A stretch of DNA of 64,000 nt. It comes from an uncultured Actinomycetes bacterium. Its GTDB lineage: Bacteria; Actinomycetota; UBA4738; HRBIN12. Shown here in pieces: positions 2,465 through 60,434 of the stretch (within the stretch, counting starts at the first letter, position 1; the number at the start of each line of letters is the position of its first letter). The stretch spans positions 22,148 through 86,147 of the forward strand of contig CAVPLL010000002.1 in NCBI GenBank assembly GCA_963706005.1. The letters run 5' to 3'. Under the pieces are notes generated by a model. It worked only from the letters and a program-made list of their open reading frames with translations, had not been told where the DNA came from and searched no databases. The translations under genes were made by a program, and so were the position numbers.

Positions 2465-2465
2465 C

Positions 2466-41599: not shown

Positions 41600-41928
41600 G
41601 CGACGCGACCACCTCCAGGGAGAATGAACCCGGGCTCGTCCAGCTCAAGCACGCGGGCACGATCGCTCTGTACAAGGAGGGCCACGGGCCGGCATCCGCG
41701 GAACTGCTCGAACGCGTTCGGGCGCAGAACCACGTGAAGGCCGCCGTCCGCAGGGCGCTCGCCGCCGGATCCCTGACGCCTCCCCAGGTCGCCGAGGCGG
41801 CCGGGATCACGCCGCGCGAGGCGCTCTGGACGCTCACCGCGCTCCGCAAGTACGGCCTCGTCGCGGAGGACGGCGAGGACGGCGCCTACGTCCGCTACGC
41901 GCTCACCCGGGAGGACCCACGAGCATGA
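41596..41928 (+). CDS. small winged-helix-like protein of unknown function, wedged between the QmoB-like and QmoC-like genes
   Basis: 110 aa. LTPPQVAEAAGITPREALWTLTALRKYGLVAEDGEDGAYVRYALT reads as HTH plus wing. ATGA overlaps at both ends (41596-41599 and 41925-41928). Confidence 0.5.
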   Translation: MSDATTSRENEPGLVQLKHAGTIALYKEGHGPASAELLERVRAQNHVKAAVRRALAAGSLTPPQVAEAAGITPREALWTLTALRKYGLVAEDGEDGAYVRYALTREDPRA

Positions 41929-43115
41929 GCACCCAGGTCGTCGAACGCGCGAAGGTCCGGGTCGAGCCGAGCCTGATCCCCGAGCTCGAACGGTTCGGCG
42001 CGATCGACGTCGCGGCCTGCTTCAACTGCGGTAATTGCTCGGCGGTGTGTCCGCTCTCGACGCCAGACGGTGCGTTCCCTCGCAGGCTCATCCGGTACGC
42101 GCAGCTCGGCATGCGGGACGACCTGCTCGCCAGTCCGGAGGTCTGGTCGTGCTACGCGTGCGGCGAGTGCACGCTCACCTGTCCTCGCGACGCCGATCCG
42201 GCCGGGTTCATGGCAGCCGCCCGCCGGTACACGACCGCCGGCTACGACCGGACCGGCCTCGCCCGCCGCCTCGCGACCTCTCGAGGCTTCGCGATCGTCT
42301 TCATCGGCGCCGTGGTGACGGTGCTCGCGGCCTTCATGTACCGAGCGCATCAGCCGGTCGACGGGTCCACCTTCGCACCGTTCGAGTTCCTCCCGGCGCG
42401 GTTCGTGCACGATCTCGGCGTCGTGGTGCTCGCGGTCTTCGGCGTCGCTGCGGTCGCCGGTCTCATCGAGATGCATCGCCGGATCACTCGCCACGGACCG
42501 GACGGGCGGGACGGGCTCGCGCTGGCCGAGCTCGGCGGCGCCGTCTGGTACGCGGCGGCCCGAGAGTCCTTCGGCCACGAGCGTATGCGGCGGGAGTGCG
42601 CCGACGACCAGGACGCGATGCCTCGTCCGTGGTTCCTGCAGCGGTGGTTCGTCCACGCCTCGACGATGTGGGGGTTCATCGGGCTGCTCGCGGCGACGAT
42701 CCTCGATTGGGTGCTCGACATGACCGGGGTCAAGCCGACGGGCCGGGCCGTGCCCCTCTGGTATCCGGTCCGCCTGCTCGGGACCCTCGCGGGCATGCTC
42801 CTCGTCTACGGGACCTCGGTCTCGATCGTCCGGCGGATCCGCAAGCGCGAACGGTCGACTGCGAGATCCACGCTCGCGGACTGGTGGTTCCTATGGCTCT
42901 TGTGGCTGGCCGGCGTCACCGGCTTCGGCCTGGAGCTGACGCTCTACCTGCCGGATGATCCCGGATGGGGATACCCGATCTTCCTGTTCCACGTCGCGGT
43001 CTCGATGACGCTCGTCGTGCTGGCGCCGTTCGGCAAGTTCGCGCACGCGATCTACCGCCCGGTGGCGCTCGGTGTCATCCGGTCCCGCCGCCGCGCGGGA
43101 GGTGGAACACCATGA
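41925..43115 (+). CDS. HdrC-like 2x[4Fe-4S] domain fused to HdrE/NarI-like six-TM heme-b membrane domain (QmoC-like)
   Basis: CFNCGNCSAVCP and CYACGECTLTCP, then hydrophobic helices with conserved His (FVHDLGVVVLAVFG..., FVHASTMWGFIGLL..., FLFHVAVSMTLVVLAPFGKFAH). Confidence 0.8.
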   Translation: MSTQVVERAKVRVEPSLIPELERFGAIDVAACFNCGNCSAVCPLSTPDGAFPRRLIRYAQLGMRDDLLASPEVWSCYACGECTLTCPRDADPAGFMAAARRYTTAGYDRTGLARRLATSRGFAIVFIGAVVTVLAAFMYRAHQPVDGSTFAPFEFLPARFVHDLGVVVLAVFGVAAVAGLIEMHRRITRHGPDGRDGLALAELGGAVWYAAARESFGHERMRRECADDQDAMPRPWFLQRWFVHASTMWGFIGLLAATILDWVLDMTGVKPTGRAVPLWYPVRLLGTLAGMLLVYGTSVSIVRRIRKRERSTARSTLADWWFLWLLWLAGVTGFGLELTLYLPDDPGWGYPIFLFHVAVSMTLVVLAPFGKFAHAIYRPVALGVIRSRRRAGGGTP

Positions 43116-43555
43116 CGAAGGACGTGGGGGTCGCGGACCGCGTCGTCGAGCCCATCGCTTCCGGCCGCGACGAACTCGGCAGACCCGAGCATCGCGGCTG
43201 GCTGACCTGCGGCGGCCGGCGTCGGTGGATGGCCCCCTTCATCCTCGTCCTGCTGGCCGAGGAGCCGTCGCACGGGTACGGGTTGATCGGTCGCCTGCGC
43301 GAGATGGGGGTCGCCGGGGACACGATGGACGTCGGCCAGGTGTACCGCACGCTCCGGTGCCTGGAGCGGCTCGGCCACGTCCGATCTTGGTGGTCGGCCG
43401 ATCCCACCGGGCCGCGGCGCCGCGAGTACGAGCTCACCGACGACGGCCGAGCCGCCCTCGACGAGTGGGCCGTCGTGATGGCCGAACGTCAGCGGTTGAT
43501 CGACGAGTTCGAGGTCCGATACGGGGTGGCAGGGAGGATGGGAGGTGCGAGGTGA
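43112..43555 (+). CDS. PadR family transcriptional regulator
   Basis: FILVLLAEEPSHGYGLIGRLREMG...DVGQVYRTLRCLERLGHVRSWW...RREYELTDDGR. ATGA overlap with the QmoC-like stop. GGGAGGTGG RBS. Confidence 0.85.
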   Translation: MTKDVGVADRVVEPIASGRDELGRPEHRGWLTCGGRRRWMAPFILVLLAEEPSHGYGLIGRLREMGVAGDTMDVGQVYRTLRCLERLGHVRSWWSADPTGPRRREYELTDDGRAALDEWAVVMAERQRLIDEFEVRYGVAGRMGGAR

Positions 43556-44061
43556 CAGCGATGAGAGCGGGAGCGCGGACGATCGCCGAGGAGCATGAGG
43601 TGATCCGCGCGCGCCTGGAGGAGGTTCAGCGGCTCGCCGACTCGATCGGCGAGATCGGCATCGAGGATCTGGAGGGGCGCGCCGACGAGATCCACGGGTT
43701 CCTGGCCCACACCGTGATGCCGCACGCCGTGGCTGAGGGTCGGGTGCTGATCCCCGTCGTCCGCGAACGGACCCATGAGCCGACGATCGGCATCCGGATG
43801 ACGCAGTGCCACGTGCAGGTCGGCAGGCTCGTTGACGAGCTGCAACAGATCCTTTCCAAGGGCGGCGTGTCCTCGGGAGATGGTCAGCGTGACCTCAGGC
43901 GCGTGCTCTACAGCATCCACGCCCTCTTGACCGCCCACCTCGACGAGACCGAAGAGCAGGTCGAGCCTCTGCTGGAAGCGGAGCTGCCGGAGGAGGATCG
44001 GATGGCCCTTTTCGAGGCCGTTGAGCGGTGTGCTCGAGAGGTAGCCAGCCTCTACGAATAG
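43552..44061 (+). CDS. hemerythrin HHE cation-binding domain protein
   Basis: EEHEVIRARLEE, HGFLAHTVMPHAVAEG and HLDETEEQVEPLL. GTG at 43552 (GTGA overlap with the padR stop), or ATG at 43561. Confidence 0.7.
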   Translation: MTAMRAGARTIAEEHEVIRARLEEVQRLADSIGEIGIEDLEGRADEIHGFLAHTVMPHAVAEGRVLIPVVRERTHEPTIGIRMTQCHVQVGRLVDELQQILSKGGVSSGDGQRDLRRVLYSIHALLTAHLDETEEQVEPLLEAELPEEDRMALFEAVERCAREVASLYE

Positions 44062-44580: not shown

Positions 44581-44892
44581 ATGATTTCCGGCATCCTAGG
44601 CGGCCGCCAACCCGACCGCCGCGGTCCGGTTCGTTCGAGCGATACCAGCTCGAGCTCGCTTCGAGGCGATGGGGGGTTGGAGACGTCCTGGCTCCGAGCG
44701 ACGGGTCTGGCCGCCGTGATGCTGGTGGCGAGCTACCTCCTCTACGTGCTGATCCCGAACAACCTGCTCGCGTACCTCTCGCTCCACACGTCGCCTCGCA
44801 ACCGTGACCTCCTCGTGACCCTCTGGTGGCTCGTTGCGCTCGGGTTCGGATGCTGGCTCTTCGTCCGGCTGCAGCGGACGAGGGCGGGGTAG
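44581..44892 (+). CDS. hypothetical membrane protein (two TM helices)
   Basis: ...WLRATGLAAVMLVASYLLYVLIPNNLL...LLVTLWWLVALGFGCWLFVRL. The stop lies 3 nt before the next gene's start. Coding status is supported only by hydrophobic periodicity. Confidence 0.4.
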   Translation: MISGILGGRQPDRRGPVRSSDTSSSSLRGDGGLETSWLRATGLAAVMLVASYLLYVLIPNNLLAYLSLHTSPRNRDLLVTLWWLVALGFGCWLFVRLQRTRAG

Positions 44893-44894
44893 CC

Positions 44895-46742
44895 GTGCCG
44901 TTCGAAGCGAGTCCGATCGGAGCCGACTGGTTCGACGACAACGTGCCCTGCACCCGGGCGTGCCCCGTGCTCACGAACGCCGGTCGGTACGTGGCCGCGA
45001 TCGCCGCCGGCGACGATGAGCTCGCCTACCGGATCGCCCGCCTGCCGAACCCGTTCCCATCGATCTGCGGTCGGGTGTGCGCCGCGCCGTGCGAGATCGC
45101 CTGCCGCCGTGGGTCGATCGATCAGCCGATCGCGATCCGCGCGCTGAAGCGGTACGTCTGCGAGCGGTTCGGGGTGGAGAGCGGGCACGGTCCACACGCG
45201 TACGCGGACGCGATCTCGAAGGCGCCTCCGCGCGGCGAGCGCGTCGCGATCGTCGGATCGGGCCCGGCCGGCATGGCGTGCGCCCACGATCTGGCGACGT
45301 ACGGGTACCGCCCGGTGGTGTTCGAGGCCCAGGACCGTCCCGGCGGGATGATGGTGCTCGGCATCCCCCCCTACCGCCTGCGTCGCGATGTCCTCCAAGA
45401 CGAGATCCGGGCGATCTTGGACATGGGGGTCGAGCTGCGGACCGGTCAGGCCCTCGGACGGGACTTCTCGCTCGGCACGCTCCGCGACGAGGGCTTCGCA
45501 TCGGTGTTCCTGGGCGTCGGCTGCATGCGCGGCCGAGACCTGAGCATCCCGGGCGTCGAGCTCGACGGCGTCCTGCGCGCCGTGGACTTCCTGTTGAACG
45601 CGAACCTCGGGTACCGGGTGGAGCTCGGGGACGACGTGCTCGTGATCGGGGGCGGGAACGTCGCCCTCGACGCGGCCCGGACCGCCCTGCGAGAGATCGC
45701 GGCCGGTGGCTCGACCTCAGATGTGCTCGCGCCTGATGCCGACCAGGAGCTCGAGGGCGCGGTCACCCAGACCCTCGACGTCGCCCGCGTCGCGAAACGG
45801 CTCGGCGCGCGCCGCGTGCGGGTCGTGGCGCTCGAGAGCCGCGAGGAGATGCCGGCCCACGAGTTCGAGATCGAGGAGGCCGAGCTCGAAGGCATCGAGG
45901 TGCTCACCCGTCTGGGGCCGAAGGCGATCCTGGGCGAGGAGCGGGTGGGCGGGCTCGAGACGCTCCGGGTGGCTTCCGTGTTCGACCCCGACGGTCGCTT
46001 CAACCCGCGGTTGATCGACGGGACCGAATCGATCCTCGAGTGCGACTCGGTCATCCTGGCGATCGGCCAGGCGCCGGACTTGTCGTGGCTCTCGGACGAC
46101 GACGGCGTGGAGCTCAGCCCGCGCGGCACGGTGGCGGTCGATCGCGAGTCGCTCGCGACGAGCGCCGACTGGATCTTCGCGGGCGGCGACGTCGCGTTCG
46201 GCCCGCGAAACCTGATCGACGCGATCGGGGACGGCCGGCGCGCGGCGGCCTCGATCCACCGGCGGATCGCGGGCGAGGATGCACCCCTTCCCTCCGGCTC
46301 CGGGCGGAAGCTGCTCCCGATCCTGGAGGTGCGTGGACGGACGCCGGACTACACCGAATACCCGCGCATCCCGATCCCGGCCGAGCTCTCGGAACGCCGG
46401 ATCGGCTCCCCCGAGGTCGAGCTCGGGTACACGCCCGAGCAGGCACGCGAGGAGGCATCGCGTTGCCTGCAGTGCTTCCTCAACATCATGCTCGAGCCGT
46501 CGATCTGCATCCTGTGCGGGGGATGCGTCGACATCTGTCCCGAGAAGTGCATCCGCATCGTCCCCACGGAGGAGATCGCGGGGATCGAAGCCACGGGTCC
46601 GTCGAGCGCCCTGATCATCCAGGAGGAGCTGTGCATCCGGTGCGGGCTCTGCGTCGACCGGTGCCCCACGCACGCGCTGTCCCTGAAGGGCTGGTCGGAA
46701 TCGTCGACGGCTCCGATCGCGCTCGAGCCGGTCGGGATCTGA
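44895..46742 (+). CDS. GltD-like NAD(P)H-dependent FAD/Fe-S oxidoreductase fused to a C-terminal 2x[4Fe-4S] ferredoxin domain
   Basis: CTRACPVLTNAGRY...PNPFPSICGRVCAAPCEIACRR (GltD N-terminal clusters); VAIVGSGPAGMACAHDL; VLVIGGGNVALDAAR; C-terminal CLQCF...CILCGGCVDICPEKC...CIRCGLCVDRCPTHA. Ends 11 nt before cytochrome b6. Confidence 0.85.
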   Translation: MPFEASPIGADWFDDNVPCTRACPVLTNAGRYVAAIAAGDDELAYRIARLPNPFPSICGRVCAAPCEIACRRGSIDQPIAIRALKRYVCERFGVESGHGPHAYADAISKAPPRGERVAIVGSGPAGMACAHDLATYGYRPVVFEAQDRPGGMMVLGIPPYRLRRDVLQDEIRAILDMGVELRTGQALGRDFSLGTLRDEGFASVFLGVGCMRGRDLSIPGVELDGVLRAVDFLLNANLGYRVELGDDVLVIGGGNVALDAARTALREIAAGGSTSDVLAPDADQELEGAVTQTLDVARVAKRLGARRVRVVALESREEMPAHEFEIEEAELEGIEVLTRLGPKAILGEERVGGLETLRVASVFDPDGRFNPRLIDGTESILECDSVILAIGQAPDLSWLSDDDGVELSPRGTVAVDRESLATSADWIFAGGDVAFGPRNLIDAIGDGRRAAASIHRRIAGEDAPLPSGSGRKLLPILEVRGRTPDYTEYPRIPIPAELSERRIGSPEVELGYTPEQAREEASRCLQCFLNIMLEPSICILCGGCVDICPEKCIRIVPTEEIAGIEATGPSSALIIQEELCIRCGLCVDRCPTHALSLKGWSESSTAPIALEPVGI

Positions 46743-46752
46743 ACGGAGAGCG

Positions 46753-47589
46753 ATGGCCTCGAACGGACGGAGGGTGCGGGACCGGGTGTGGTACCGGTCG
46801 ATCTTCCACCCGGGCGAGGCCATCAAGGAGAGCGAGGTCTATCGATCCGCCATCCGGCACCCGTCACCGTCGACGCCCCGCGGCCGAGCGCTGACCTCGT
46901 TCCAGAACTTCTTCCTCCACCTGTACCCGGTGAAGGTGCCGCGCGAGGTGCTGTCGTTCCGATCGACACTGCGGCTCGGGTTCATCTCGACGGTGCTCTT
47001 CGGGGTGCTCACGATCTCGGGCATGTACCTGATGTTCTTCTATCACCCGACCCCTCCGGACGCGTACTTCGACATGCACTCGCTCGCGACGACCGTCGCG
47101 TTCGGGCAGTTCGTCCGCAACATCCATCGCTGGTCGGCCCACCTCATGGTGCTCACGGTGTTCGCGCACCTGCTGCGGGTCTTCTACGCCGGGGCGTATA
47201 AGCGACCTCGACAGTTCAACTGGGTGATCGGTGTCTTCCTGCTGCTGGGCACCCTCTTCCTGTCCTTCACCGGCTACCTGCTCCCGTGGGACCAGCTCTC
47301 GTACTGGGCGATCACCGTCGGGACGAACATCGCCGGCTACGTCCCGGTCATGGGCGACGGCGTGCGCAAGATGCTCCTCGGTGGCGCCGATGTCGGCAGC
47401 GCCACCCTGCTCCGCTTCTACGTCCTCCACGTCTTCTTCGTGCCGGCGCTGACGGTGATCGGGCTCTGCATCCACATCTGGCGCGTCCGCAAGGACGGCT
47501 TCGCGATCGCCGATCGGAAGCGGGAGCCGGCGCCCGCGCCCGAGGCCGAGGTCGCCCCGGCCCCCGAGGAGGTGAGCGCCGATGTCTGA
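46753..47589 (+). CDS. cytochrome b6-type (split cytochrome b, N-terminal four-helix part)
   Basis: FVRNIHRWSAHLMVLTVFAHLLRVF (His-13-His) and LRFYVLHVFFVPALTVIGLCIHIWR (His-14-His, the b6-type spacing), plus FTGYLLPWDQLSYWA. Confidence 0.9.
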   Translation: MASNGRRVRDRVWYRSIFHPGEAIKESEVYRSAIRHPSPSTPRGRALTSFQNFFLHLYPVKVPREVLSFRSTLRLGFISTVLFGVLTISGMYLMFFYHPTPPDAYFDMHSLATTVAFGQFVRNIHRWSAHLMVLTVFAHLLRVFYAGAYKRPRQFNWVIGVFLLLGTLFLSFTGYLLPWDQLSYWAITVGTNIAGYVPVMGDGVRKMLLGGADVGSATLLRFYVLHVFFVPALTVIGLCIHIWRVRKDGFAIADRKREPAPAPEAEVAPAPEEVSADV

Positions 47590-48094
47590 TGAGGCCGAGC
47601 CGCGGGAGCGCTACCGGCTCCTCGGCGTCGTCCCTCGCGAGATCGAGCAACGCGAGGAGCAGGAGCCCGACGACACCGTCTTCACCTGGCCCCACTTCCT
47701 GATCCGGCACCTTGTGGTCGCGGCCGTCACCATCGCGATCGTGTTCGCGATCGCGATCGCGTTCGACGCGCCGCTGAAAGACATCGCCAACCCCAGCCTC
47801 ACGCCGCAGGAGGCCAAGGCCCCCTGGTACTTCGCCGGTCTGCAGGAGCTGCTCGCGCACCTGCAGCCGATGGTCGCGGGGATCCTCATCCCGGGCGCCG
47901 CCCTCGTGTTCCTGTTCGCCCTCCCATACCTCGATCGCGGCGAAGGGTGGCGGATCAGGGACCGGAAGATGGTCGTGATCGTCCTCACCGTGCTCGCCGT
48001 GGCCGCGTTGGTGCTCACGGTCGTCGGTGCGTTCTTCCGGGGTCCCGGCTGGTCGTGGGCGTGGCCCTGGGATCACCTCTATCTGGAGCTGTAG
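47582..48094 (+). CDS. cytochrome b C-terminal part / subunit IV (PetD-like)
   Basis: TWPHFLIRHLVV...TPQEAKAPWYFAGLQELL (PEWY-box equivalent). 8-nt overlap with the b6 gene. Confidence 0.85.
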   Translation: MSDEAEPRERYRLLGVVPREIEQREEQEPDDTVFTWPHFLIRHLVVAAVTIAIVFAIAIAFDAPLKDIANPSLTPQEAKAPWYFAGLQELLAHLQPMVAGILIPGAALVFLFALPYLDRGEGWRIRDRKMVVIVLTVLAVAALVLTVVGAFFRGPGWSWAWPWDHLYLEL

Positions 48095-48142
48095 CGATGG
48101 ACGGCGAACGAGACACCTGCGGAGGCGCCCGGGTCCGAGCCC

Positions 48143-48637
48143 ATGGCTCGACGGGACTTCCTGAACACGACGTGGAAGGTCCTGGGCGTGGCGCTCATCG
48201 TCGAGGCCGGGTGGACGAGCTACGACATCTTGAACCCGAAGCCGGCCGCCGGGTTCGGTGGGATCGTCGACGCGGGTCCGGTCGAGGACTACCTCACCGA
48301 AGGCACGGTGCAGTACTTCCTCGACGGGCGCTTCTACGTGACCCAGTTCCAGGGTGGCCTGCGAGCGCTGTATCAGAAATGCCCGCACCTGGGCTGCAAG
48401 GTCGGCGATTGCACGACCGCGGGCGCCTCGTCGGGCTTCCGATGCCCCTGTCACGGGAGCATGTACAACGTGATCGGCGAGTACCTGGACGGGCCCGCGC
48501 CGCGCGGCATGGACCGCTTCCCGATCTCGATCGAGAACGGCCACGTCATGGTCGACACGTCATCGGTCGTCGAGGGCCCGGCGCGAGGGGTCCTGACGGG
48601 CCCGACGGAGCCTCCGACCGCCTGCGGGGGCGAGTGA
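48143..48637 (+). CDS. Rieske [2Fe-2S] subunit of the cytochrome b6/bc-type complex
   Basis: Tat-like MARRDFLNTTWKVLGVALIV, then CPHLGC...(16 aa)...CPCHGSMY. Confidence 0.9.
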   Translation: MARRDFLNTTWKVLGVALIVEAGWTSYDILNPKPAAGFGGIVDAGPVEDYLTEGTVQYFLDGRFYVTQFQGGLRALYQKCPHLGCKVGDCTTAGASSGFRCPCHGSMYNVIGEYLDGPAPRGMDRFPISIENGHVMVDTSSVVEGPARGVLTGPTEPPTACGGE

Positions 48638-49106
48638 TGACGGAGACGCTGCGCGAGGATCCGACCCTCGTCCGGAGCTCGATGCGGTGGAGGTGGGTCG
48701 GCACCTTCATGCTCGTGCTGCTGGTGGTCGCCTTCCCCCTGTACAAGGCCGTCGAGTCCTCCCGTCGAGCGGACGCGGTGCGCTCGCAGGACGTCGCCCT
48801 GATCTCGTCCGGTCAGCAACTGTGGGCGCTCAACTGCGCGGCGTGCCACGGCGAGAACGGCCAGGGCGTGAGCGCGCCCGCGCTGAACTCCCAGGAGTTC
48901 TTCGAGGGGACCTCCGACGAGCAGATCGCGGGCATCGTGCGGGGCGGCGTTCCGGGACCGCGATGCCGGCCTGGTGGAACGAGTACGGGGGGCCGCTCAC
49001 CGACCAGCAGGTCGCCGAGGTGGTCGCGTACGTCCGCTCCTGGGAGCAGACGGCGCCGAGCTGCCCGGATTGGCGCACGCCCTCGTGCCCGGGGACGGGG
49101 GCCTGA
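48637..49106 (+). pseudogene. membrane-anchored monoheme cytochrome c, frameshift at a G-run near 48954-48956
   Basis: TM anchor WVGTFMLVLLVVAFPLY and heme site CAACHGENG. After ...IVRGGVPG the frame changes. The distal-ligand segment TAMPAWWNEYGGPLTDQQVAEVVAYVRSW is in the frame of ORF 48687..49106. Confidence 0.8.
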
Positions 49107-49111
49107 GGGCG

Positions 49112-51181
49112 ATGCGCCGGGTCCCTGCCCTCGCCGCGCTCGCGGGCCTGCTCCTCGCGGCCTGCTCGAGCGCTGGCCCCGAGGGCGCGAGCGGCACCGT
49201 GGTGTTCATCCCCGGATACCAGGCGGGCGGGGGGACCGCCGCGGTCGTCCCCCAGGGATACACGGCGGCCGACCAGCCGATCACGGTGGGTCTCGGCGAG
49301 ACCGACCCCACCCACATGTTCATCGACCTGTCCCAGGCCTACACCTCCGAGGGCACGGTCACGTTCGTCGTGACGAACGAGGGGGCCGAGACGCACGAGT
49401 TCGTCGTGCTGCGCACGGACTCCGCCGCGGGCTCGTTCCCGATCGTGTCGTTCGAGGGCGAGCCCAACCGGATCGACGAGGACGCGCCGGGCGTCACGAA
49501 CGTCGGGGAAACCGGCGACATGGAGCCAGGGACGACGATGGCCCTCTCGCTCGACCTCGCTCCGGGCCACTACGCCGTGGTCTGCAACCTGGCCGGGCAC
49601 TACGCCTTCGGGATGCACCAGGACTTCAACGTGGTGCCTGCCGGCTCGACCCCGATCGAGGTCGGCCTCGGCGAGACCGACCCCACCCACATGTTCATCG
49701 ACCTGTCCCAGGCCTACGCGCCGCAGGGGCAGGTCACGTTCATCATCACCAACCAGGGGGCCGAGGATCACGAGTTCGTCGTCCTTGCCACCGACACCCC
49801 CGCCGCGGACTTCCCGATCACCGGGTTCGAGGGCGAGCCCAACCGCTTCGACGAGGACGCCGAGGGCCTGACCAACGTGGGGGAGACGGGCGACCCGGCG
49901 ATGGCACCCGGCACCTCGCTGATGCTCACGATCGACATGTCGGCCGGCCACTACGCCGTGGTCTGCAACCTGGCCGGGCACTACGCCTTCGGGATGCACC
50001 AGGACTTCAACGTGGTGCCTGCCGGCTCGACCCCGATCGAGGTCGGCCTCGGCGAGACCGACCCCACCCACATGTTCATCGACCTGTCCCAGGCCTACGC
50101 GCCGCAGGGGCAGGTCACGTTCATCATCACCAACCAGGGGGCCGAGGATCACGAGTTCGTCGTCCTTGCCACCGACACCCCCGCCGCGGACTTCCCGATC
50201 ACCGGGTTCGAGGGCGAGCCCAACCGCTTCGACGAGGACGCCGAGGGCCTGACCAACGTGGGGGAGACGGGCGACCCGGCGATGGCACCCGGCACCTCGC
50301 TGATGCTCACGATCGACATGTCGGCCGGCCACTACGCCGTGGTCTGCAACCTGGCCGGGCACTACGCCTTCGGGATGCACCAGGACTTCAACGTGGTGCC
50401 TGCCGGCTCGACCCCGATCGAGGTCGGCCTCGGCGAGACCGACCCCACCCACATGTTCATCGACCTGTCCCAGGCCTACGCGCCGCAGGGGCAGGTCACG
50501 TTCATCATCACCAACCAGGGGGCCGAGGATCACGAGTTCGTCGTCCTTGCCACCGACACCCCCGCCGCGGACTTCCCGATCACCGGGTTCGAGGGCGAGC
50601 CCAACCGCTTCGACGAGGACGCCGAGGGCCTGACCAACGTGGGGGAGACGGGCGACCCGGCGATGGCACCCGGCACCTCGCTGATGCTCACGATCGACAT
50701 GTCGGCCGGCCACTACGCCGTGGTCTGCAACCTGGCCGGGCACTACGCCTTCGGGATGCACCAGGACTTCAACGTGGTGCCTGCCGGCTCGACCCCGATC
50801 GAGGTCGGCCTCGGCGAGACCGACCCCACCCACATGTTCATCGACCTGTCCCAGGCCTACGCGCCGCAGGGGCAGGTCACGTTCATCATCACCAACCAGG
50901 GGGCCGAGGATCACGAGTTCGTCGTCCTTGCCACCGACACCCCCGCCGCGGACTTCCCGATCACCGGGTTCGAGGGCGAGCCCAACCGCTTCGACGAGGA
51001 CGCCGAGGGCCTGACCAACGTGGGGGAGACGGGCGACCCGGCGATGGCACCCGGCACCTCGCTGATGCTCACGATCGACATGTCGGCCGGCCACTACGCC
51101 GTGGTCTGCAACCTGGCCGGGCACTACGCCTTCGGGATGCACCAGGACGTCTGGATCACCCCGAGCGTCTCTCCCGCCTGA
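49112..51181 (+). CDS. lipoprotein with five tandem type-1 copper (cupredoxin/plastocyanin-like) domains
   Basis: Signal plus lipobox MRRVPALAALAGLLLAAC. Each of five ~127-aa units carries H (THEF/DHEF) and C-NLAG-H-YAFG-M (Cys-x4-His-x4-Met). Intact 689-aa frame. Confidence 0.85.
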   Translation: MRRVPALAALAGLLLAACSSAGPEGASGTVVFIPGYQAGGGTAAVVPQGYTAADQPITVGLGETDPTHMFIDLSQAYTSEGTVTFVVTNEGAETHEFVVLRTDSAAGSFPIVSFEGEPNRIDEDAPGVTNVGETGDMEPGTTMALSLDLAPGHYAVVCNLAGHYAFGMHQDFNVVPAGSTPIEVGLGETDPTHMFIDLSQAYAPQGQVTFIITNQGAEDHEFVVLATDTPAADFPITGFEGEPNRFDEDAEGLTNVGETGDPAMAPGTSLMLTIDMSAGHYAVVCNLAGHYAFGMHQDFNVVPAGSTPIEVGLGETDPTHMFIDLSQAYAPQGQVTFIITNQGAEDHEFVVLATDTPAADFPITGFEGEPNRFDEDAEGLTNVGETGDPAMAPGTSLMLTIDMSAGHYAVVCNLAGHYAFGMHQDFNVVPAGSTPIEVGLGETDPTHMFIDLSQAYAPQGQVTFIITNQGAEDHEFVVLATDTPAADFPITGFEGEPNRFDEDAEGLTNVGETGDPAMAPGTSLMLTIDMSAGHYAVVCNLAGHYAFGMHQDFNVVPAGSTPIEVGLGETDPTHMFIDLSQAYAPQGQVTFIITNQGAEDHEFVVLATDTPAADFPITGFEGEPNRFDEDAEGLTNVGETGDPAMAPGTSLMLTIDMSAGHYAVVCNLAGHYAFGMHQDVWITPSVSPA
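49565..51148 (+). repeat. perfect in-frame tandem repeat, period 381 bp, about 4.16 copies
   Basis: The landmark string cactacgccgtggtctgcaacc recurs at 49568, 49949, 50330, 50711 and 51092 (spacing exactly 381). Every line I compared between copies is nucleotide-identical, and the translated units are identical. Confidence 0.95.
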
Positions 51182-51315
51182 TCGAGCGACGGGGCACGGA
51201 GACGACCACCGATCAGGGTCCGAACCGGTCGATCAGCACCCCGTGACCGACACCTCGGTCACTCGCCGTCAACCTCTGTTGGCTCGACTCCTCTCGTGCC
51301 CATGTCCCGCCCCGT

Positions 51316-52281
51316 CTACAGCCAGTCGATGCGCCGGAACAGCCAGTAGAGGCCGGCACAGGCGCCGACGATCAAGGCGGCGGAGGCGACGGCCCCCCAG
51401 TGACGGAGGTAGCCGGGGAAGGGGACGTTCATGCCGTAGAAGCCGGTGATGAGCGCGGGGACCGCGATGATGGCCGCCCAGCTGCTGACCTTCTTGACGA
51501 TCTGGTTCTGGTGGTAGTCGCGCAGGCTGAGGTTGGTCTCCACGATGGTGCTCACGAGATCGCGGAGCGAATCGGAGGACTCGCTGACACGCAGGATGTG
51601 GTCGTACACGTCCTGGAAGTACGGGTAGAGCTCCTCGGCGACGGCGGAGTGCTCGCGCCGCATGAGGCTGCTGATCGCCTCGCGCATCGGAACCACGAGG
51701 CGGTGGAACCGAACCATCGCGCGGCGCATCTGGAACCAGCGGCGCTGCTGTGCCGGGTCGAGCGGACGGTCCGAGAAGATCCCGTCACTGACCTCCTCGT
51801 AGTACTCGTCGAAGGCTTGGACGGCGTCGAAGTACCGGTCGACGATGACGTCGAGCAATCCGTAGAGGAAGAAGCTGACCCCCAGGGCCGCGAGGTCGGG
51901 CGAGCGATCCCAACGCTCCAGCACCGGATCGATCGGGAAGCGATCGTTCTTGCGAACGGTGATGAGCCAGCGCTGATTGATGAAGGCATCGATCTCGGTC
52001 TCGTCGAGCCTGCCACGCTCGGTGTCGACGCTCACGGCGTGGCAGGACAGGAACAGGTGCGTGGCGTACCGGTCGAGCTTCGGGCGTTGGTGGGGGCCGA
52101 GGGCGTCCTCGACGGCGAGCTCGTGCAGGCCGAGCTCGACGGCGAGCTCGTCCAGCTGCTCTTTCGAAGGACCGCAGAGATCAACCCAGACCACCGTGTC
52201 GGGGCCCTCGAGGTACTTGGACACCTCGGCGATCGCGAAGCCCTCGGCCTCGAGGGCACCCTCGCGGTAGACCCTGGTCAT
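51316..52281 (-). CDS. corA: magnesium/cobalt transporter CorA
   Basis: MTRVYREG... and a C-terminal YGMNV (GMN) motif between two TM helices. Confidence 0.95.
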   Translation of the reverse strand: MTRVYREGALEAEGFAIAEVSKYLEGPDTVVWVDLCGPSKEQLDELAVELGLHELAVEDALGPHQRPKLDRYATHLFLSCHAVSVDTERGRLDETEIDAFINQRWLITVRKNDRFPIDPVLERWDRSPDLAALGVSFFLYGLLDVIVDRYFDAVQAFDEYYEEVSDGIFSDRPLDPAQQRRWFQMRRAMVRFHRLVVPMREAISSLMRREHSAVAEELYPYFQDVYDHILRVSESSDSLRDLVSTIVETNLSLRDYHQNQIVKKVSSWAAIIAVPALITGFYGMNVPFPGYLRHWGAVASAALIVGACAGLYWLFRRIDWL

Positions 52282-52500
52282 GGCATTCGCCAAAGAGGAC
52301 CCTCCATGCCCGACACCGTGTGTCGGTCCGAGCGATCCCCCGGCCCGGCACGCACGGCTGGGAGTATGAGCGTTACCACCCCCGGGCACCAACGTGCAGC
52401 TCCGTTCGGACCATGCGTTCGACCGGTGGTCCCAACGGTCCGAGCCGGTGTCTCCACTCCTGTTCCGTCCTCGACGTGCCGCTGGTCCGTTGTCGAAGCC

Positions 52501-52791
52501 CTAGGCGAAGTGCTCGGGGCCCGAGTACGCGGAGGCGCCTCGTCCCCCGGCAGCCACCGCCCTGTCGCGGTCCTGGTCGGTCACGGTCGGTCGGACGATC
52601 ACGTAGATCAGGATGCCGAAGAGCGGAAGGATGAAGATCAACAGGATCCATCCGGCCTTCGCGCCTCCGGAAAGATCCCGGCGCCGGAAGACGTCCGCGA
52701 ACACCGCGATGAACATCCAGATCAACATGACCCAGAAGAAGAACACGAGCATCGACCACATGAGATCGCCCAATCCGAACTCAGCCAGCAT
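52501..52791 (-). CDS. PLD nuclease N-terminal domain (PLDc_N) small membrane protein
   Basis: LMWSMLVFFFWVMLIWMFIAVFADVFRRRDLSGGAKAGWILLIFILPLFGILIYVIVRP. Confidence 0.7.
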   Translation of the reverse strand: MLAEFGLGDLMWSMLVFFFWVMLIWMFIAVFADVFRRRDLSGGAKAGWILLIFILPLFGILIYVIVRPTVTDQDRDRAVAAGGRGASAYSGPEHFA

Positions 52792-53914: not shown

Positions 53915-54066
53915 CGTCCGTGCCTCCTTACTCAAGGGATGACCCGAGGATAGCGGCGCAACCGGGCCGGTCGCACCGTGTCCGCCAGTCCTGGCTGGAC
54001 GAACGCCAGCAAACATGACCTGAGGTCATCGTCCGGGTGGCGAAGGCGTTTCCCCAGGTCGTCGCG

Positions 54067-54139
54067 TAGTCCCAACGGGGTTCGAACCCGTGTCTCCACC
54101 TTGAGAGGGTGGTGTCCTAGGCCACTAGACGATGGGACC
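54067..54139 (-). tRNA. tRNA-Glu (anticodon CUC)
   Basis: Minus strand: GGTCCCATCGTCTAGTGGCCTAGGACACCACCCTCTCAAGGTGGAGACACGGGTTCGAACCCCGTTGGGACTA. Folded by eye: anticodon stem CCACC/GGTGG with loop CTCTCAA, and T-arm ACGGG-TTCGAAC-CCCGT. CCA is not encoded. Confidence 0.85.
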
Positions 54140-54198: not shown

Positions 54199-55608
54199 GT
54201 GCGCCCGCATCTCGTTCCGATCCGCCTGGCGTCGATCATCGCCCTGGCCGTCCTGGCGACCCTCGCGGCCGCGGCTCCATCCTCCCGGGCGGTCCCGACG
54301 CTCCCTCCTTCTCCTGCCCAAGCGGCGCCGGGCATCGAGACGATCGAGCACATCATCATCGTCGTCCAGGAGAACCGCTCGTTCGACCACTACTTCGGCA
54401 CGTATCCGGGCGCCGACGGGATCCCCCGCCGCCCGGATGGTTCCTTCGCGGTCTGCAACCCCGACCCTTCTCGCGGACGGTGCGTCCGCCCCTACCACTC
54501 GACCACCATGTACGACGCGGGCGGTGCGCACAACCAGCACGCGTCGGAGATGGATGTGGACGGCGGGCTGATGGACGGGTTCGTCAGGACCGTTCGAAGG
54601 AGCGGCAACACGTGCGTGCAACATCCGGATAACCGGCGATGCAGGGAGACGCAGACCGGACCCGTTGGCCAGCCCGACGTGATGGGGTACCACACCCGCT
54701 CGGAGATCCCGAACTACTGGGCCTACGCGGACCATTTCGCCCTGCAGGACCGGATGTTCGCACCGAGCGACTCGTGGACGCTGCCCTCGCACCTGTTCCT
54801 CACCTCAGCGTGGTCGGCCACCTGCTCGGATCTCTCGGATCCGATGAGCTGCCGATCGGACCTCGTCACGCCAGGGAACCGGTGGCGGCCGGACAGTGGC
54901 GATCCCGCTCCCTACGCCTGGACCGACATCACGTACCTGCTCCACGAGCAGAACGTTTCGTGGGGGTACTACGTCGGGGAGGGGACCTGTATCCGTCTGC
55001 CGTGCCCCACCGGCGACGCACCTCACACCACCTCCACGCAGCTCCCGATCGCGGGCTTCCGAACCGTGGAGGAGGACGACCAGCTCGACCACATCCGTCC
55101 GCACCCGGACTTCTTCCAGGCCGCGCACATCGGGGGGCTGCCGTCCGTGTCGTGGGTGATGCCCTTCATCGGGGCCAGCGAGCATCCTCCGGGCAACATC
55201 CGCGATGGGCAGGCGTGGGTCACGAAGGTCGTCAATGCCGTGATGAGCGGGCCCGACTGGGATTCCAGCGTCATCTACCTCACCTGGGACGACTGGGGTG
55301 GCTTCTACGACCACGTCGTACCGAAGATGATCGACAGGAACGGCTACGGGATCCGGGTCCCCGCGCTCGCGATCAGCCCGTGGGTGAAGCCAGGACTCAT
55401 CGACCATCAGCTCCTGTCGTTCGATGCCTACCTGCGGTTCATCGAGGATCGCTTCCTCGGCGGCGAGCGTCTGGACCCCGCGACGCTCAGCCGGCCCGAC
55501 TCGCGACCCACGGTTCGCGAGGCGGTGCCTATCCTCGGGGATCTGGCGAACGAGTTCGACTTCACCCAGACGCCGATCCCGCCGTTGATCCTCGACCCGC
55601 GGCCCTGA
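54199..55608 (+). CDS. phosphoesterase family protein (phospholipase C / acid phosphatase AcpA-like), secreted
   Basis: [27 protein letters not shown]...[11 protein letters not shown]...[12 protein letters not shown]. Confidence 0.85.
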
Positions 55609-55620
55609 CCGCTCGAGGCG

Positions 55621-57081
55621 CTAGTCCTCGCCCTGGTCGCGAGTGAACCCGGGCTCGCCGTCGAACTCCTGGAGCTTCTCGATGTGCATCCAGGAGTGCG
55701 CGCTCGAGATCCGGACCAGGAGCGCGTGGACGTCCTCGTCGGACAGGGCGCCCGGCTCCTCCTCGAGGATGAACCGGCAACGGAAGTGGTCGCCGGTCTC
55801 GGTCATCGCGCCCATCGAGGGGAAGACCTTGGTCCCGCGGCTCGAGATCAGCTTGAGCGAGAGCTTCGTGTCGTGCGTGAGCTCCGTCAGGGAGGCCCCG
55901 AGCTCGCTCGCCGAGAGCGGCGACTCGACGAACACGTCCAGGCCGACCACCGAACGGGTCGTCGGCCGCACGTAGTCGGGCGCCGGGTCGATCTTCGGGA
56001 GCTGCAGCGGCAGCACCTCGCGGATCGTCCAGGTCTCGGTGCGCTTGCCGAGGTTGCCGATGATCGCGTCCGCGTAGTCTGTCGTGGGCGTGCCGCGGTC
56101 GTAGCCGAGCACGTCGCCCGTCAGCACGCCGGACTCGAGCGTCACGAACACCGCGTGCTCGATCGCGGCCGCCTGCTCGAAGAACCCGAGGTAGCGGAGC
56201 ATCAGCACGGCCGACAGGATGACCGCGGTCGGGTTGATCACGTTCTTGCCGGCGTACTTGGGCGCCGAGCCGTGGACGGCCTCGAAGATCGCGACCTCGT
56301 TGCCCACGTTCGCCGACGGCGCGAACCCGAGCCCGCCGATCAGCGCCGAGGACAGGTCGGACAGGATGTCGCCGTTCATGTTGGTCGTGACGATGACGTC
56401 GAACTGCTCCGGTCGCTTGACGAGCTGGTGCGCGCAGTTGTCGACGATCACGTGCCATGACTCGATCTCCGGGTAGTCGGGGGCGACCCGCTCGAAGACG
56501 CGTTTCAGCGTCCCCTCCGAGAGCTTCATGATGTTGGCCTTCGTGGCGCAGGCGACCTTCGTGCGTCCCTCGCTCCTCGCGTACTCGAACCCGAACCGCG
56601 CGATCTTCTCGCAGCCCTTCTCGCTGATCAGCTTGAGGGCCTGGGCGACGCCGGGCGTCTGCAGGTACTCGATGCCCGCGTACAGGTCCTCGACGTTCTC
56701 GCGGACCATGACGAGGTCGATCCCGCGGCCGCTGTACGGGGTCTTCACGCCCGGCATCTCGCGTACCGGGCGGACGTTCGCGTAGGTCTCGAACAGCTTG
56801 CGGAGCGTGACGTTCGCCGACTTCTCGCCGAAGCCCACCGGCGTCTCGAGCGGGCCCTTCAGGGCCACGCGCGTGCGTGAGATCGACTCGATCGTCTCCG
56901 GGGGGACGCCCGAGGGGAGCCCCTTGCGGAACACCTCGGCGCCGGCCTCGCACTCCTCCCACTGGATCGGGACGCCGGCTGCCTCGATGATCCGCCTGGC
57001 CGCGTCGACGCACTCGGGACCGATCCCGTCGCCGGGGATCAGGGTCACGACGGTGGGAGGATCGGATGGGTTCACGGTCAC
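55621..57081 (-). CDS. icd: isocitrate dehydrogenase (isocitrate/isopropylmalate dehydrogenase family) with ~140-aa C-terminal extension
   Basis: [10 protein letters not shown]...[11 protein letters not shown]...[19 protein letters not shown]...[11 protein letters not shown] start with a GAAGGAG RBS. Confidence 0.85.
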
Positions 57082-57180
57082 GAGGTCTCCTTCGTCGGGT
57101 GGGCGGCCATCCTAGCCGCCGGCAACCGGACGCGATGGTCCGGTGCAGAACGGTGGCGATTGGTACCCTCGGGCGGTCCC

Positions 57181-58641
57181 ATGGCCACGAACCCCCCTCG
57201 CCCGCGCCGGACCATCGTCGCGCTGACCCTGTTCGCGATGCTCGCCGCCGCCTGCACGGCGGCGTCGGGCGAGACCGGACCGACCACGACGGGGGCGGCA
57301 GGTCCCTCCACGTCGCCGTCACCCTCTCCCGGCCCGGGGCTCACCAAGCTCGAGCAGGCCAAGCTGCACCTCAAGCACCTGGTGTTCATCGTCCAGGAGA
57401 ACCGCTCGTTCGATCACTACTTCGGAACCTTCCCGGGCGCGGACGGCATCCCGATGCGCAACGGGAAGCCGACCGTGTGCGTGCCGGACCCCATCGCAGG
57501 CAGATGCGTGCGTCCGTACCACTCGACCTCGCAGCTCCAGCAGGGGGGTCCGCACGGTCAGCGCCAGTCGGTCATCGACGTCGACAGCGGGAAGATGGAC
57601 GGGTTCGTGAGGACGGTCATCGACAGCCCGCTGTACTGCGCGGACCACCGGGACGATCCCAAGTGCGACAGCTACCTCGGACCTGCGGGGCAGCCCGACG
57701 TCATGAGCTATCACACGGCAAAGGAGATCCCGAACTACTGGCGCTACGCGCGGGAGTTCGTGCTCCAGGACCACATGTTCGCCCCCGCGGATTCGTGGAC
57801 CCTGCCGGCGCACCTGTTCCTGGTGTCCGCCTGGGCCGCGCGATGCTCGGACCCCCGCGATCCGATGTCGTGCGTCTCGAACCTCGACCTGAACGAGGAG
57901 TTCCAGACGATGCACTCTGGCCGGGACGTCCCGATCTGGGCATGGACCGACATCACCTACCTGCTGCACGAGAACGGGGTCAGCTGGTCGTACTACGTGG
58001 GCGACGACACCTGCTTCTTCGACCCCTGCCCGTCGGCCCACGGCCGCCACAACACGGTCTCGCAGCAGAACCCGCTGCCGTGGTTCACGACGATCCGCGA
58101 GACCGGCCAGATGGATCGGATCCAGAACCACGACCAGTTCTTCAGGGCGGCCGCGAACGGGACCCTGCCCTCGGTCTCGTGGGTGATGCCCTACAACGGC
58201 GTCGGCGAGCATCCGGCGTCGGGCGCCCCGATCTGGCGGGGGCAACGCCACGTCACCCAGGTCGTGAACGCGCTGATGGAGGGGCCCGACTGGAACGACA
58301 CGGCGATCTTCCTCACGTGGGACGACTGGGGGGGCTTCTACGATCACGTGGAGCCACCGCACGTGGACCTGAACGGGTACGGGATCCGCGTCCCGGGACT
58401 GCTCATCAGTCCGTGGGCGCGAGCCGGACTGATCGACTCCCAGACCCTGTCGTTCGACGCGTACCTGAAGCTGATCGAGGACCTGTTCCTCGACAAGGAG
58501 CGGCTCAACCCCGCGACCCTCAGCCGCCCCGACTCACGTCCGACCGTTCGCGAGAAGGCGTCGATCCTCGGGAACCTGCTGAAGGATTTCGACTTCAGCC
58601 AAGAGCCGCTCCCCCCGGTGATCCTAGATCCGACGCCGTAA
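57181..58641 (+). CDS. phosphoesterase family protein, paralog of 54199..55608 (signal/lipoprotein-like N-terminus)
   Basis: [25 protein letters not shown]...[25 protein letters not shown]...[12 protein letters not shown]. By eye it aligns with the first copy along its whole length (roughly 55-60% identity). Confidence 0.85.
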
Positions 58642-60336: not shown

Positions 60337-60363
60337 CCACCCAAGGAAACCGGTTGGCGATCG

Positions 60364-60434
60364 CTGGCCCGCCTGGATTCGAACCAGGACTAACTGATCC
60401 AGAGTCAGCCGGGCTACCGTTACCCCACGGGCCA
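60364..60434 (-). tRNA. tRNA-Gln (anticodon CUG)
   Basis: Minus strand: TGGCCCGTGGGGTAACGGTAGCCCGGCTGACTCTGGATCAGTTAGTCCTGGTTCGAATCCAGGCGGGCCAG. It has U1-A72 with G73, a perfect 7-bp acceptor stem, anticodon loop CTCTGGA, and T-arm CCTGG-TTCGAAT-CCAGG. Confidence 0.9.

Follow-up and report, generated by a model that had tools for sequence, protein, structure and literature searches.

A five-domain cupredoxin lipoprotein encoded with an APWY-type Rieske/cytochrome b complex in an uncultured actinomycete: a possible tethered acceptor pool whose units probably evolve in concert

Cupredoxin carriers tethered beside quinol-oxidising complexes are already known, the examples being auracyanin, sulfocyanin and halocyanin. 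Auracyanin, from Chloroflexus and Roseiflexus, is a membrane-tethered blue copper protein thought to accept electrons from a quinol-oxidising complex, and sulfocyanin (SoxE) is a membrane-anchored cupredoxin that joins a Rieske/cytochrome b module to an oxidase. Where domains follow one another in a single chain, neighbours usually diverge; in streptococcal alpha C and Rib and staphylococcal SasG/Aap, DNA-identical in-frame repeats of folded domains are homogenised by recombination, vary in copy number and collapse in short-read assemblies. Here, we describe a lipoprotein gene with five cupredoxin units, four of them identical, located at 49112-51181 on the plus strand of a 64,000-nucleotide (nt) stretch of DNA, hereafter the window (contig CAVPLL010000002.1, positions 22,148 to 86,147, assembly GCA_963706005.1), from an uncultured Actinomycetes bacterium. 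A conserved operon for a Rieske/cytochrome b complex ends with this array gene.

Rieske/cytochrome b complexes with the Qo motif APWY form a clade found in delta-Proteobacteria, Chloroflexi, Nitrospirales, Planctomycetes and deep-branching Actinobacteria, none of whose members has been characterised, and which has been linked to complexes taking in electrons from the high-potential chain (PMC4122944, Kao and Hunte 2014). Its members include anaerobic ammonium-oxidising (anammox) Planctomycetes and Geobacter. For the anammox complexes it has been proposed that quinol oxidation is bifurcated, one electron going uphill to nicotinamide adenine dinucleotide (phosphate), NAD(P)+, while numerous c-type haems at the positive side receive the other (PMC12954380). 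The complexes of Kuenenia stuttgartiensis (Kuste4569-4574 and Kustd1480-1485) share their subunit logic with the system in the window, namely a Rieske protein, a cytochrome b split into b6 and subunit IV, and, facing the positive and the negative side respectively, a c-type cytochrome and a flavin adenine dinucleotide (FAD)/iron-sulphur (FeS) NAD(P) oxidoreductase; in both there are many redox centres on the positive side. The anammox complexes differ in having multihaem c subunits and a hydroxylamine oxidoreductase (HAO)-like protein, in Planctomycetota, whereas the window encodes a monohaem cytochrome c and five copper domains, in Actinomycetota.

The reading that we favour, with a probability of roughly 0.55, combines a functional and an evolutionary part. 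The protein would be a lipid-anchored chain of five type-1 copper domains, joined by linkers of about four residues, at the outer face of the cytoplasmic membrane, where it would serve the Rieske/cytochrome b6-type complex as its high-potential redox module, on the outer (positive) side. It would exchange electrons with the Rieske cluster via the cytochrome c and hand them on to a terminal acceptor, most likely as a tethered multivalent acceptor pool, with an NfnB-like FAD/FeS NAD(P) oxidoreductase as the subunit on the cytoplasmic side. The array would thus take the role of the multihaem c subunits in the anammox complexes, a role that single tethered cupredoxins (auracyanin, sulfocyanin, halocyanin) fill elsewhere. 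Continuing homogenisation in the tandem array, by unequal crossing-over or gene conversion, would keep units 2-5 nucleotide-identical, and selection would hold the number of domains at five.

An ATG at 49112, inside the plus-strand open reading frame (ORF) 48974-51181, opens a protein of 689 amino acids (aa) with the N-terminus MRRVPALAALAGLLLAAC; the gene, stop codon included, ends at 51181, and its assignment draws on the ORF and its translation, on matches to Pfam SoxE (PF06525) and on 61 homologues. The signal peptide (49112-49165) closes with the lipobox LLLAAC, so that MRRVPALAALAGLLLAAC fits the bacterial lipoprotein pattern L-[AS]-[GA]-C, and Cys18 (codon 49163-49165) is invariant in an alignment of 15 full-length homologues and would be the lipidated residue. 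The lipid anchor is separated from the first domain by a tether of approximately 36 aa (49166-49273), disordered in the structural model, in which the motif TVxxIPGYQxGGG..PQGY is conserved, with T29, P34, G39, P47 and G49 retained across the same alignment; this motif could be a docking peptide.

The remainder of the protein consists of one diverged unit, A (49274-49633), followed by four identical units of 127 aa, B1 (49634-50014), B2 (50015-50395), B3 (50396-50776) and B4 (50777-51178), all on the plus strand. Units B2 and B3 are identical to B1, and B4 is the same as B1 up to position 51148 and then ends in a unique C-terminal tail, VWITPSVSPA. While the B units have a protein identity of 1.00 among themselves, unit A is about 71% identical to them in protein and about 79% in DNA. 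Comparison of each base i with base i+381 gave a single uninterrupted run of identity for i = 49565-50767, which means that 49565-51148 (1584 nt, 4.16 units) is periodic at 381 nt with 0 mismatches. Tandem Repeats Finder (TRF) called the whole array at 49277-51148, with a period of 381 and 4.9 copies. The final 69 nt of unit A already lie within the homogenised tract, and a perfect repeat of 1.6 kb exceeds chance by far. Two other long ORFs cross the repeat, one in an alternative frame (47947-51246, plus strand, 1099 aa) and one antisense (48830-51142, minus strand, 770 aa); both are by-products of high G+C content and periodicity and not genes.

All five units carry a His in the context xHEF followed by Cys-x4-His-x4-Met (CNLAGHYAFGM), the ligands being H95, C158, H163 and M168 in A, H220, C285, H290 and M295 in B1, H347, C412, H417 and M422 in B2, H474, C539, H544 and M549 in B3, and H601, C666, H671 and M676 in B4. 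The lipobox, the five complete type-1 copper ligand sets and the nucleotide-perfect 381-bp repeat, down to its end points, had all been proposed in a preliminary description of this DNA, and they were recovered here without change. In an alignment of 35 diverse units, H46, C111, H116 and M121 are invariant, as are N40, E47, E74, T85 and G86, which are part of an acidic loop (FEGExNRxDED...GETGD).

With regard to family assignment, Pfam SoxE matches the protein in five stretches, with 99.5 bits and an expect value (E) of 1.6e-28 for the whole chain, while single units score 24.3 bits, and 22.1 bits for unit A, marginally over the gathering cut-off of 21 bits. The NCBIfam equivalog model for sulfocyanin, TIGR03094, was not reached (92.4 bits against a cut-off of 168.4). 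Sulfocyanin itself is an archaeal, single-domain subunit, known from the SoxM-type oxidase supercomplex of Sulfolobus and from Ferroplasma, whereas the array has five domains, occurs in metagenome-assembled genomes (MAGs) of Actinomycetota and stands in a bacterial NAD(P)-linked Rieske/cytochrome b operon that contains no oxidase genes.

A sequence-only search of the Protein Data Bank (PDB) with one unit gave weak matches, the best being to the auracyanin-type entry 6kol (E 0.026), then to auracyanin A and rusticyanin, and a fold search was therefore needed. The AlphaFold2 model of one B unit, built from the alignment of 35 diverse units, reached a predicted local distance difference test (pLDDT) score of 96.4 and a predicted template-modelling (pTM) score of 0.89. 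Foldseek ranked the auracyanins first (6kol, 1qhq), then rusticyanin, the Cup domain of EfeO and azurin; the match to auracyanin had an E of 1.3e-07 and a template-modelling (TM) score of 0.64, and those to auracyanin, rusticyanin and azurin had a probability of 1.00 and TM scores of 0.52-0.64, placing the modelled unit in the Greek-key beta-sandwich fold of the cupredoxins. Auracyanin (6kol, 1qhq, 2aan), the best structural match, has the same Cys-x4-His-x4-Met loop; it differs in being a single domain with Alternative Complex III as partner, and its identity to an array unit is about 20%. Rusticyanin of Acidithiobacillus ferrooxidans likewise has the same fold and ligand spacing, and differs in being the soluble, single-domain protein of an acidophile, again at about 20% identity, with no features of acid stability indicated in the array.

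Given the conserved ligands and the modelled fold, the units would bind copper, and we consider it very likely that they are type-1 copper electron carriers. In the full-length model (pLDDT 85.9, pTM 0.79), residues 1-44, which comprise the signal peptide and tether, fall below a pLDDT of 50, and a gap of 4 residues lies between the closing strand of each domain and the opening strand of the following one. Multicopper oxidases and other multidomain cupredoxins (laccase, CueO, ceruloplasmin, NirK, Mnx) also have several cupredoxin domains per chain and were the top full-length Foldseek hits by E-value. They differ in that the array lacks the ligands of a trinuclear cluster and has a complete type-1 site in every domain, its Cys being flanked by Val and Asn. 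A multicopper oxidase identity was rejected: no unit has an HCH motif (the Cys context is VVCNL) or a paired HxH, and the packing of the domains is different (query-normalised TM 0.16-0.20 and root-mean-square deviation (rmsd) 19-25 Å against ceruloplasmin, laccases and NirK).

The array gene is preceded by six genes on the same strand. The first is a small conserved membrane ORF of 103 aa (44581-44892) with predicted membrane helices, which overlaps the annotated start of the following flavoprotein and, by tblastn synteny, precedes the operon in about 40 related loci; it may encode an extra small subunit of the complex. It is followed by the FAD/NAD(P)-binding [4Fe-4S] oxidoreductase (44826-46742, start codon uncertain), which is GltD/NfnB-like with a polyferredoxin tail (Pfam Pyr_redox_2, Fer4_20 and Fer4; NCBIfam PRK12771), and then by the two halves of a split cytochrome b, namely a cytochrome b6-like N-terminal half (46753-47589; Pfam Cytochrome_B, 2.5e-43; NCBIfam cytochrome b6; 266 bits against the NCBIfam ExtP model with a cut-off of 290) and a subunit IV-like C-terminal half (47582-48094; Pfam Cytochrom_B_C). 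The latter carries the Qo motif APWY (KAPWYF, 47819-47830) and not PEWY or PDWY, which places the cytochrome b of the window in the APWY clade. The Rieske [2Fe-2S] subunit (48143-48637; Pfam Rieske) has a twin-arginine leader and the motif CPHLGC...CPCHGS, and the sixth gene (48637-49106) encodes a membrane-anchored monohaem cytochrome c with CAACH at 48835-48849.

In a locus scan restricted to one genome per species, which yielded 77 loci, this gene order from the 103-aa ORF to the array was found by tblastn in about 50, including the adjacent NAD(P) oxidoreductase; the genes flanking the operon were not conserved. In three more distant loci (L048, L059 and L061), the cupredoxin gene remains beside the operon despite a rearranged order. 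Furthermore, a metagenome protein of 383 aa (P0061) joins this membrane-anchored cytochrome c to one cupredoxin unit, a fusion that hints at direct interaction of the two. The link to the Rieske/cytochrome b complex made in the preliminary description is thus borne out by operon conservation, and the array is likely a partner of this complex. The same description had placed the array directly downstream of the complex and had it replace soluble cytochrome c; in fact the cytochrome c gene at 48637-49106 lies between, and a monohaem cytochrome c is encoded immediately upstream of the array in every locus, so that neither direct adjacency nor replacement holds.

Similarity to the anammox complexes extends to the individual subunits. 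The best matches of the Rieske protein in the whole PDB are Kustd1480 (9rk3) and Kuste4569 (9rk4) of Kuenenia stuttgartiensis. The flavoprotein matches NfnA (9n5u), NfnABC (9bov/9bp5) and the polyferredoxin FwdF (5t5i), and NfnABC and FwdF are also the structural homologues reported for the anammox protein Kuste4570 (PMC12954380); its likeness to Kuste4570 rests on these shared homologies. On the basis of the APWY motif, the Rieske matches and the shared flavoprotein homologues, the complex can be linked to the NAD(P)-linked complexes of anammox bacteria, and Rieske/cytochrome b complexes of the anammox type seem to occur widely among soil Actinomycetota. The multihaem c subunits on the positive side have no counterpart here: the operon encodes a single CxxCH (CAACH) and, instead, five copper domains.

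In the window, the cytochrome c gene has lost one nucleotide in a G run near 48955-48958 (CCGGGACC as compared with CCGGGGAC in four relatives, one of them an Illumina assembly), and as a result the CAACH haem motif and the half that carries the Met ligand fall in different reading frames. The linked cytochrome c is intact in the relatives, where it has 151-170 aa and forms 617 clusters at 90% identity. The shift is probably a Nanopore homopolymer error, the alternative being a real pseudogene.

With regard to the evolutionary part, a look-up of the exact array protein in public assemblies returned no record, and a search of 5.8 billion proteins retrieved 61 relatives, many of about 690 aa and with 52-90% identity, among which P0042 and P0043 bear the NCBI label 'sulfocyanin-like copper-binding protein'. 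Nearly all multi-unit loci came from the Nanopore long-read MAGs of Microflora Danica, labelled as uncultured Actinomycetes or Actinomycetota, which had been assembled with Flye (nano-hq) and polished by one round of Medaka (PMC12313526). Units were counted by copper motifs in all frames and by TRF in 31 complete long-read loci, and 27 of these have five; the others have six (L012), four (L017 and L020) or two (L035). Two of the counted loci lie on complete chromosomes, L009 with five units and L020 with four.

Within an array, successive units are 99.5-100% identical in DNA in most long-read loci, synonymous sites included; mismatches occur at 0-3 positions in arrays of about 1.5-1.9 kb, and at 7 in the six-unit array of about 2.1 kb, whereas the same units compared between genomes are 64-97% identical. 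The pattern is clearest in the seven genomes of the ABBBB type (the window, L001, L019, L002, L003, L005 and L023). Between these, B units differ at 14-71 of 381 nt, mostly in synonymous codons among the closer pairs, and each difference between genomes is shared by the four B copies of the genome concerned. The A units of the seven are orthologous to one another (A-A 73-92%, as compared with 70-81% for A-B) and distinct from B, and the split between A and B is therefore older than these species. The identity extends to synonymous sites, which purifying selection on the protein would not account for, and recombinational homogenisation has to be invoked. Where the homogenised tract begins varies with the lineage: in the seven genomes, the first copper motif ends 51, 53, 51, 48, 21, 18 and 21 nt beyond the 5' edge of the tract, as would be expected from independent exchange events.

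Other states of the array are also found. All five units are homogenised (AAAAA) in L006-L009, L011, L012, L014, L015 and L028; a two-unit period (ABABA) occurs in L016 and P0010, an ABBBA' arrangement in L018 and L021, and fully diverged units (ABCDE, 72-86% identity) in L010 and L013. Since the diverged arrays also have five units, the five-domain architecture must be old. Moreover, one MAG has two paralogous arrays (L014 and L015) with uniform units inside each and only 97% identity between the two, which shows that homogenisation acts within an array. The same MAG, MFD10007.bin.1.78, holds three copies of the whole operon (L014, L032 and L015), with L014 and L032 about 14 kb apart on CAVQUN010000007.1. 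Paralogous units are thus closer within a genome than orthologous units are between genomes, at synonymous sites as well, and we have high confidence that the identity of units 2-5 is due to concerted evolution. The nearly constant number of units leads us to infer that copy number is under selection. The bacterial adhesins and antigens alpha C, Rib and SasG/Aap share with the array DNA-identical tandem repeats of whole domains that are kept uniform within each array; they differ in that their copy number varies freely, whereas the array consists of a metal redox domain at nearly constant five across species.

Several points weigh against the reading that we favour. The window contains no haem-copper oxidase or other obvious terminal acceptor, the only oxidase encoded being a cytochrome bd quinol oxidase, and the frameshift in cytochrome c, if real, would break the proposed electron path in this organism. 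Fusion of cytochrome c and cupredoxin is a single case (P0061), and the 120 best homologues of the cytochrome c include no other. The number of units does vary somewhat, as seen in the long-read arrays of two, four and six units (L035, L017, L020 and L012), and for the window itself a count of five is what its relatives would indicate. For every member of the family, copper binding, redox potential and partners are predictions. Finally, for APWY-type and NAD(P)-linked Rieske/cytochrome b complexes the function itself has only been proposed (PMC4122944, PMC12954380), and for this reason the array could be a donor rather than an acceptor. The partnership, the direction of electron flow and a pool rather than a wire are what we infer, and the acceptor pool is an idea compatible with the evidence.

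The serious rival, although we regard it as unlikely, is a flow in the opposite direction. The array would then take electrons from a high-potential donor, such as Fe(II), reduced humics or another enzyme on the periplasmic side, and hand them over to cytochrome c, Rieske protein and complex, which would run uphill to reduce quinone or NAD(P)+ in the manner of the rusticyanin-cytochrome c-bc1 branch of Acidithiobacillus ferrooxidans. The Cys-x4-His-x4-Met spacing and the fold do resemble those of rusticyanin, which works with a cytochrome c and a bc1 complex able to run uphill (PMC4122944); sulfocyanin has been proposed as the first acceptor of electrons from Fe(II) in Ferroplasma (PMC10654088); and the operon includes an NAD(P) oxidoreductase subunit. 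However, there is no evidence of lithotrophy in these organisms, no outer electron-entry protein is linked to the operon, and in the proposal for the anammox complexes quinol is the donor and the module on the positive side the acceptor (PMC12954380). Direction is something that sequence cannot reveal.

A different question is whether electrons would pass along the chain. In an electron wire, five closely spaced coppers would conduct along a rigid rod through the cell wall, for long-range or extracellular exchange, and we hold this to be quite improbable and a domain-to-domain wire to be less likely than a tethered pool. Linkers of about four residues, together with a pTM of 0.79 for the five-domain chain, point to a defined rather than floppy arrangement, one that is unlike the compact multicopper oxidases (TM about 0.19 and rmsd about 25 Å to ceruloplasmin), and the conserved number of five suggests a constraint on length. 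Against this stands the topology of cupredoxins, in which the chain starts and finishes at the end facing away from the copper site; neighbouring coppers in a head-to-tail chain are then likely at least 25 Å apart, too far for fast direct tunnelling. In addition, the long flexible Pro/Thr/Ala linkers of similar proteins in other lineages (P0062, P0065, P0067 and P0149) fit independent tethered carriers better. More speculative still is a version in which the five-copper rod would be a wall-spanning copper conduit, an analogue of the multihaem 'nanowire' cytochromes, through which monoderm soil Actinomycetota would exchange electrons with external high-potential partners; the complex would use this high-potential branch to drive NAD(P)+ reduction, and concerted evolution would preserve the five-domain length.

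Two further alternatives concern the repeat itself and not its function. The preliminary description had listed an uncertain copy number in the assembly, very recent amplification, copy-number variation and ongoing gene conversion side by side, and had suggested a comparison of domain number in related MAGs and a structure prediction for the full protein. With both now available, in the form of the counts and the model given above, it is ongoing homogenisation, through gene conversion or unequal crossing-over, that is supported, by B units identical within and different between the seven genomes and by the orthology of unit A. An assembly or polishing artefact, in which the true number of units differs or the units are not truly identical, is very unlikely. 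The exact protein is found in no other assembly, and the window does carry consensus errors of the Nanopore type (the 1-nt deletion in cytochrome c and frameshifts in CydA/CydB); these same errors suggest that the contig was built from long reads, favouring a correct copy number. The 27 independent long-read assemblies out of 31 give five units with the same period, two loci lie on complete chromosomes, and an array of 1.6 kb is presumably short enough to be spanned by Nanopore reads. The same pipeline also preserves diverged arrays (L010 and L013) and retains single mismatches between units.

The short-read relatives, which show two units, would seem to favour such an artefact. Illumina or MEGAHIT MAGs that are as near to the window as the five-unit long-read genomes have an intact two-domain AB gene (L025, L027 and L031, L025 being an Illumina assembly of a Microflora Danica sample), and in L036 and L044 runs of N lie inside the array. 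Collapse to two units, with a single B, is however the expected behaviour of de Bruijn assemblies on near-identical tandem units, and it is in itself a separate line of evidence that the units are identical. For the same reason, short-read catalogues understate the number of domains.

Recent independent amplification, from an AB gene to ABBBB in this genome and separately in each relative, with no long-term homogenisation, has slightly less in its favour still. Perfect identity resembles a very young duplication, and a long-read relative with two units (L035) exists; yet seven genomes share the arrangement of one A and four B units although their B units differ from genome to genome at as many as 71 of 381 nt, which would require repeated convergence on exactly four copies, and arrays that are diverged to 72-86%, fully homogenised or of two-unit period have five units likewise, so that an amplification confined to this genome is improbable.

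A role in copper or iron handling in place of electron transfer, as in CopI-like copper resistance or EfeO-like iron uptake, has scant probability: weak NCBIfam matches (EfeO 102 bits, CopI 55 and 37 bits), the EfeO Cup domain among the top fold matches and a conserved acidic loop that could bind cations speak for it, but the scores are far under the curated cut-offs (270, 280 and 200 bits), the protein lacks the M75 peptidase domain of EfeO, the neighbourhood contains neither EfeU/EfeB nor cop genes, the His/Cys/His/Met set is complete and invariant in every unit and the linkage to a respiratory operon is invariant. EfeO and CopI were rejected as identities of the protein, as the curated cut-offs were not reached, the gene context did not fit and the cupredoxin is the sole domain present.

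Beyond the close relatives, a profile search of 1.84 billion representative sequences retrieved 7505 proteins with the array domain, mostly with one or two units. In unrelated lineages, type-1 copper lipoproteins with four to six units are found (P0062, P0065, P0067, P0149 and P0194), with diverged units and long linkers rich in Pro, Thr and Ala, another way of building the same multi-copper architecture. As a few other lineages also have four to six units, multi-cupredoxin lipoproteins are a recurring, uncharacterised architecture. No characterised homologue was found, as the preliminary description had supposed, and uncharacterised ones are numerous. In literature searches on sulfocyanin in Actinobacteria, tandem or multidomain cupredoxin arrays and cupredoxin lipoproteins, no account of such arrays was found; there, 'multidomain cupredoxin' denotes multicopper oxidases or NirK. 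In particular, we found no description of an array of five domains, each with an intact type-1 site, that serves an NAD(P)-linked APWY-type Rieske/cytochrome b complex of Actinomycetota on its positive side, nor of the homogenisation of such an array species by species at a conserved copy number, nor of its invisibility to short reads.

Upstream of the operon in the window lie genes for an HdrA-like FAD/FeS protein (39719-41599), an FeS membrane protein that includes a NarI-like part (41628-43115) and a protein with a hemerythrin domain (43072-44061), none of which is syntenic with the operon in any related locus. Directly downstream of the array, a CorA magnesium transporter gene on the minus strand (51316-52392) has no match in any related locus; beyond it lies a PLDc_N-domain gene (52501-52791). 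In L019 and L025, both close relatives, this gene follows the array gene at a distance of about 300 nt, which suggests a local insertion or deletion. Further along, two genes flank an isocitrate-dehydrogenase-like gene, one at 54199-55608 that matches Pfam Phosphoesterase (phospholipase C-like) and one at 56881-58641; they are candidate paralogues on account of a similar C-terminal tail alone. Scans with Rfam and for tRNAs found only tRNA-Glu (54066-54139) and tRNA-Gln (60363-60434), unrelated to the array. In 43.8-52.6 kb, no promoter-like sites were detected, and terminator-like sites were at chance level. At the start of the window, the ORF for cytochrome bd subunit I (CydA, 3-2108) reads into the start of CydB, the rest of which lies in other frames (1991-2464 and 2448-3401), in apparent further frameshifts of the Nanopore kind.

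Discussion of NAD(P)-linked APWY-type Rieske/cytochrome b complexes, none of which has been characterised, has centred on anammox bacteria; they now appear in widespread soil Actinomycetota as well, with 617 clusters of the linked cytochrome c. With copper domains in place of the anammox haems, the locus would offer a second, independent system in which to ask why many high-potential centres are needed on the outer side. Should the less probable copper conduit prove true, it would amount to an energy module, lithotrophic or bifurcating, that has so far escaped notice. The array runs against the usual divergence of neighbouring domains, and where short-read MAGs report two domains long reads show five, so that the domain counts of repeat proteins in short-read catalogues are systematically too low. 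Finally, the family provides a natural series of fully homogenised, partly homogenised, two-unit-period and fully diverged arrays, almost all with five units, which may serve to separate selection on domain number from selection on sequence.

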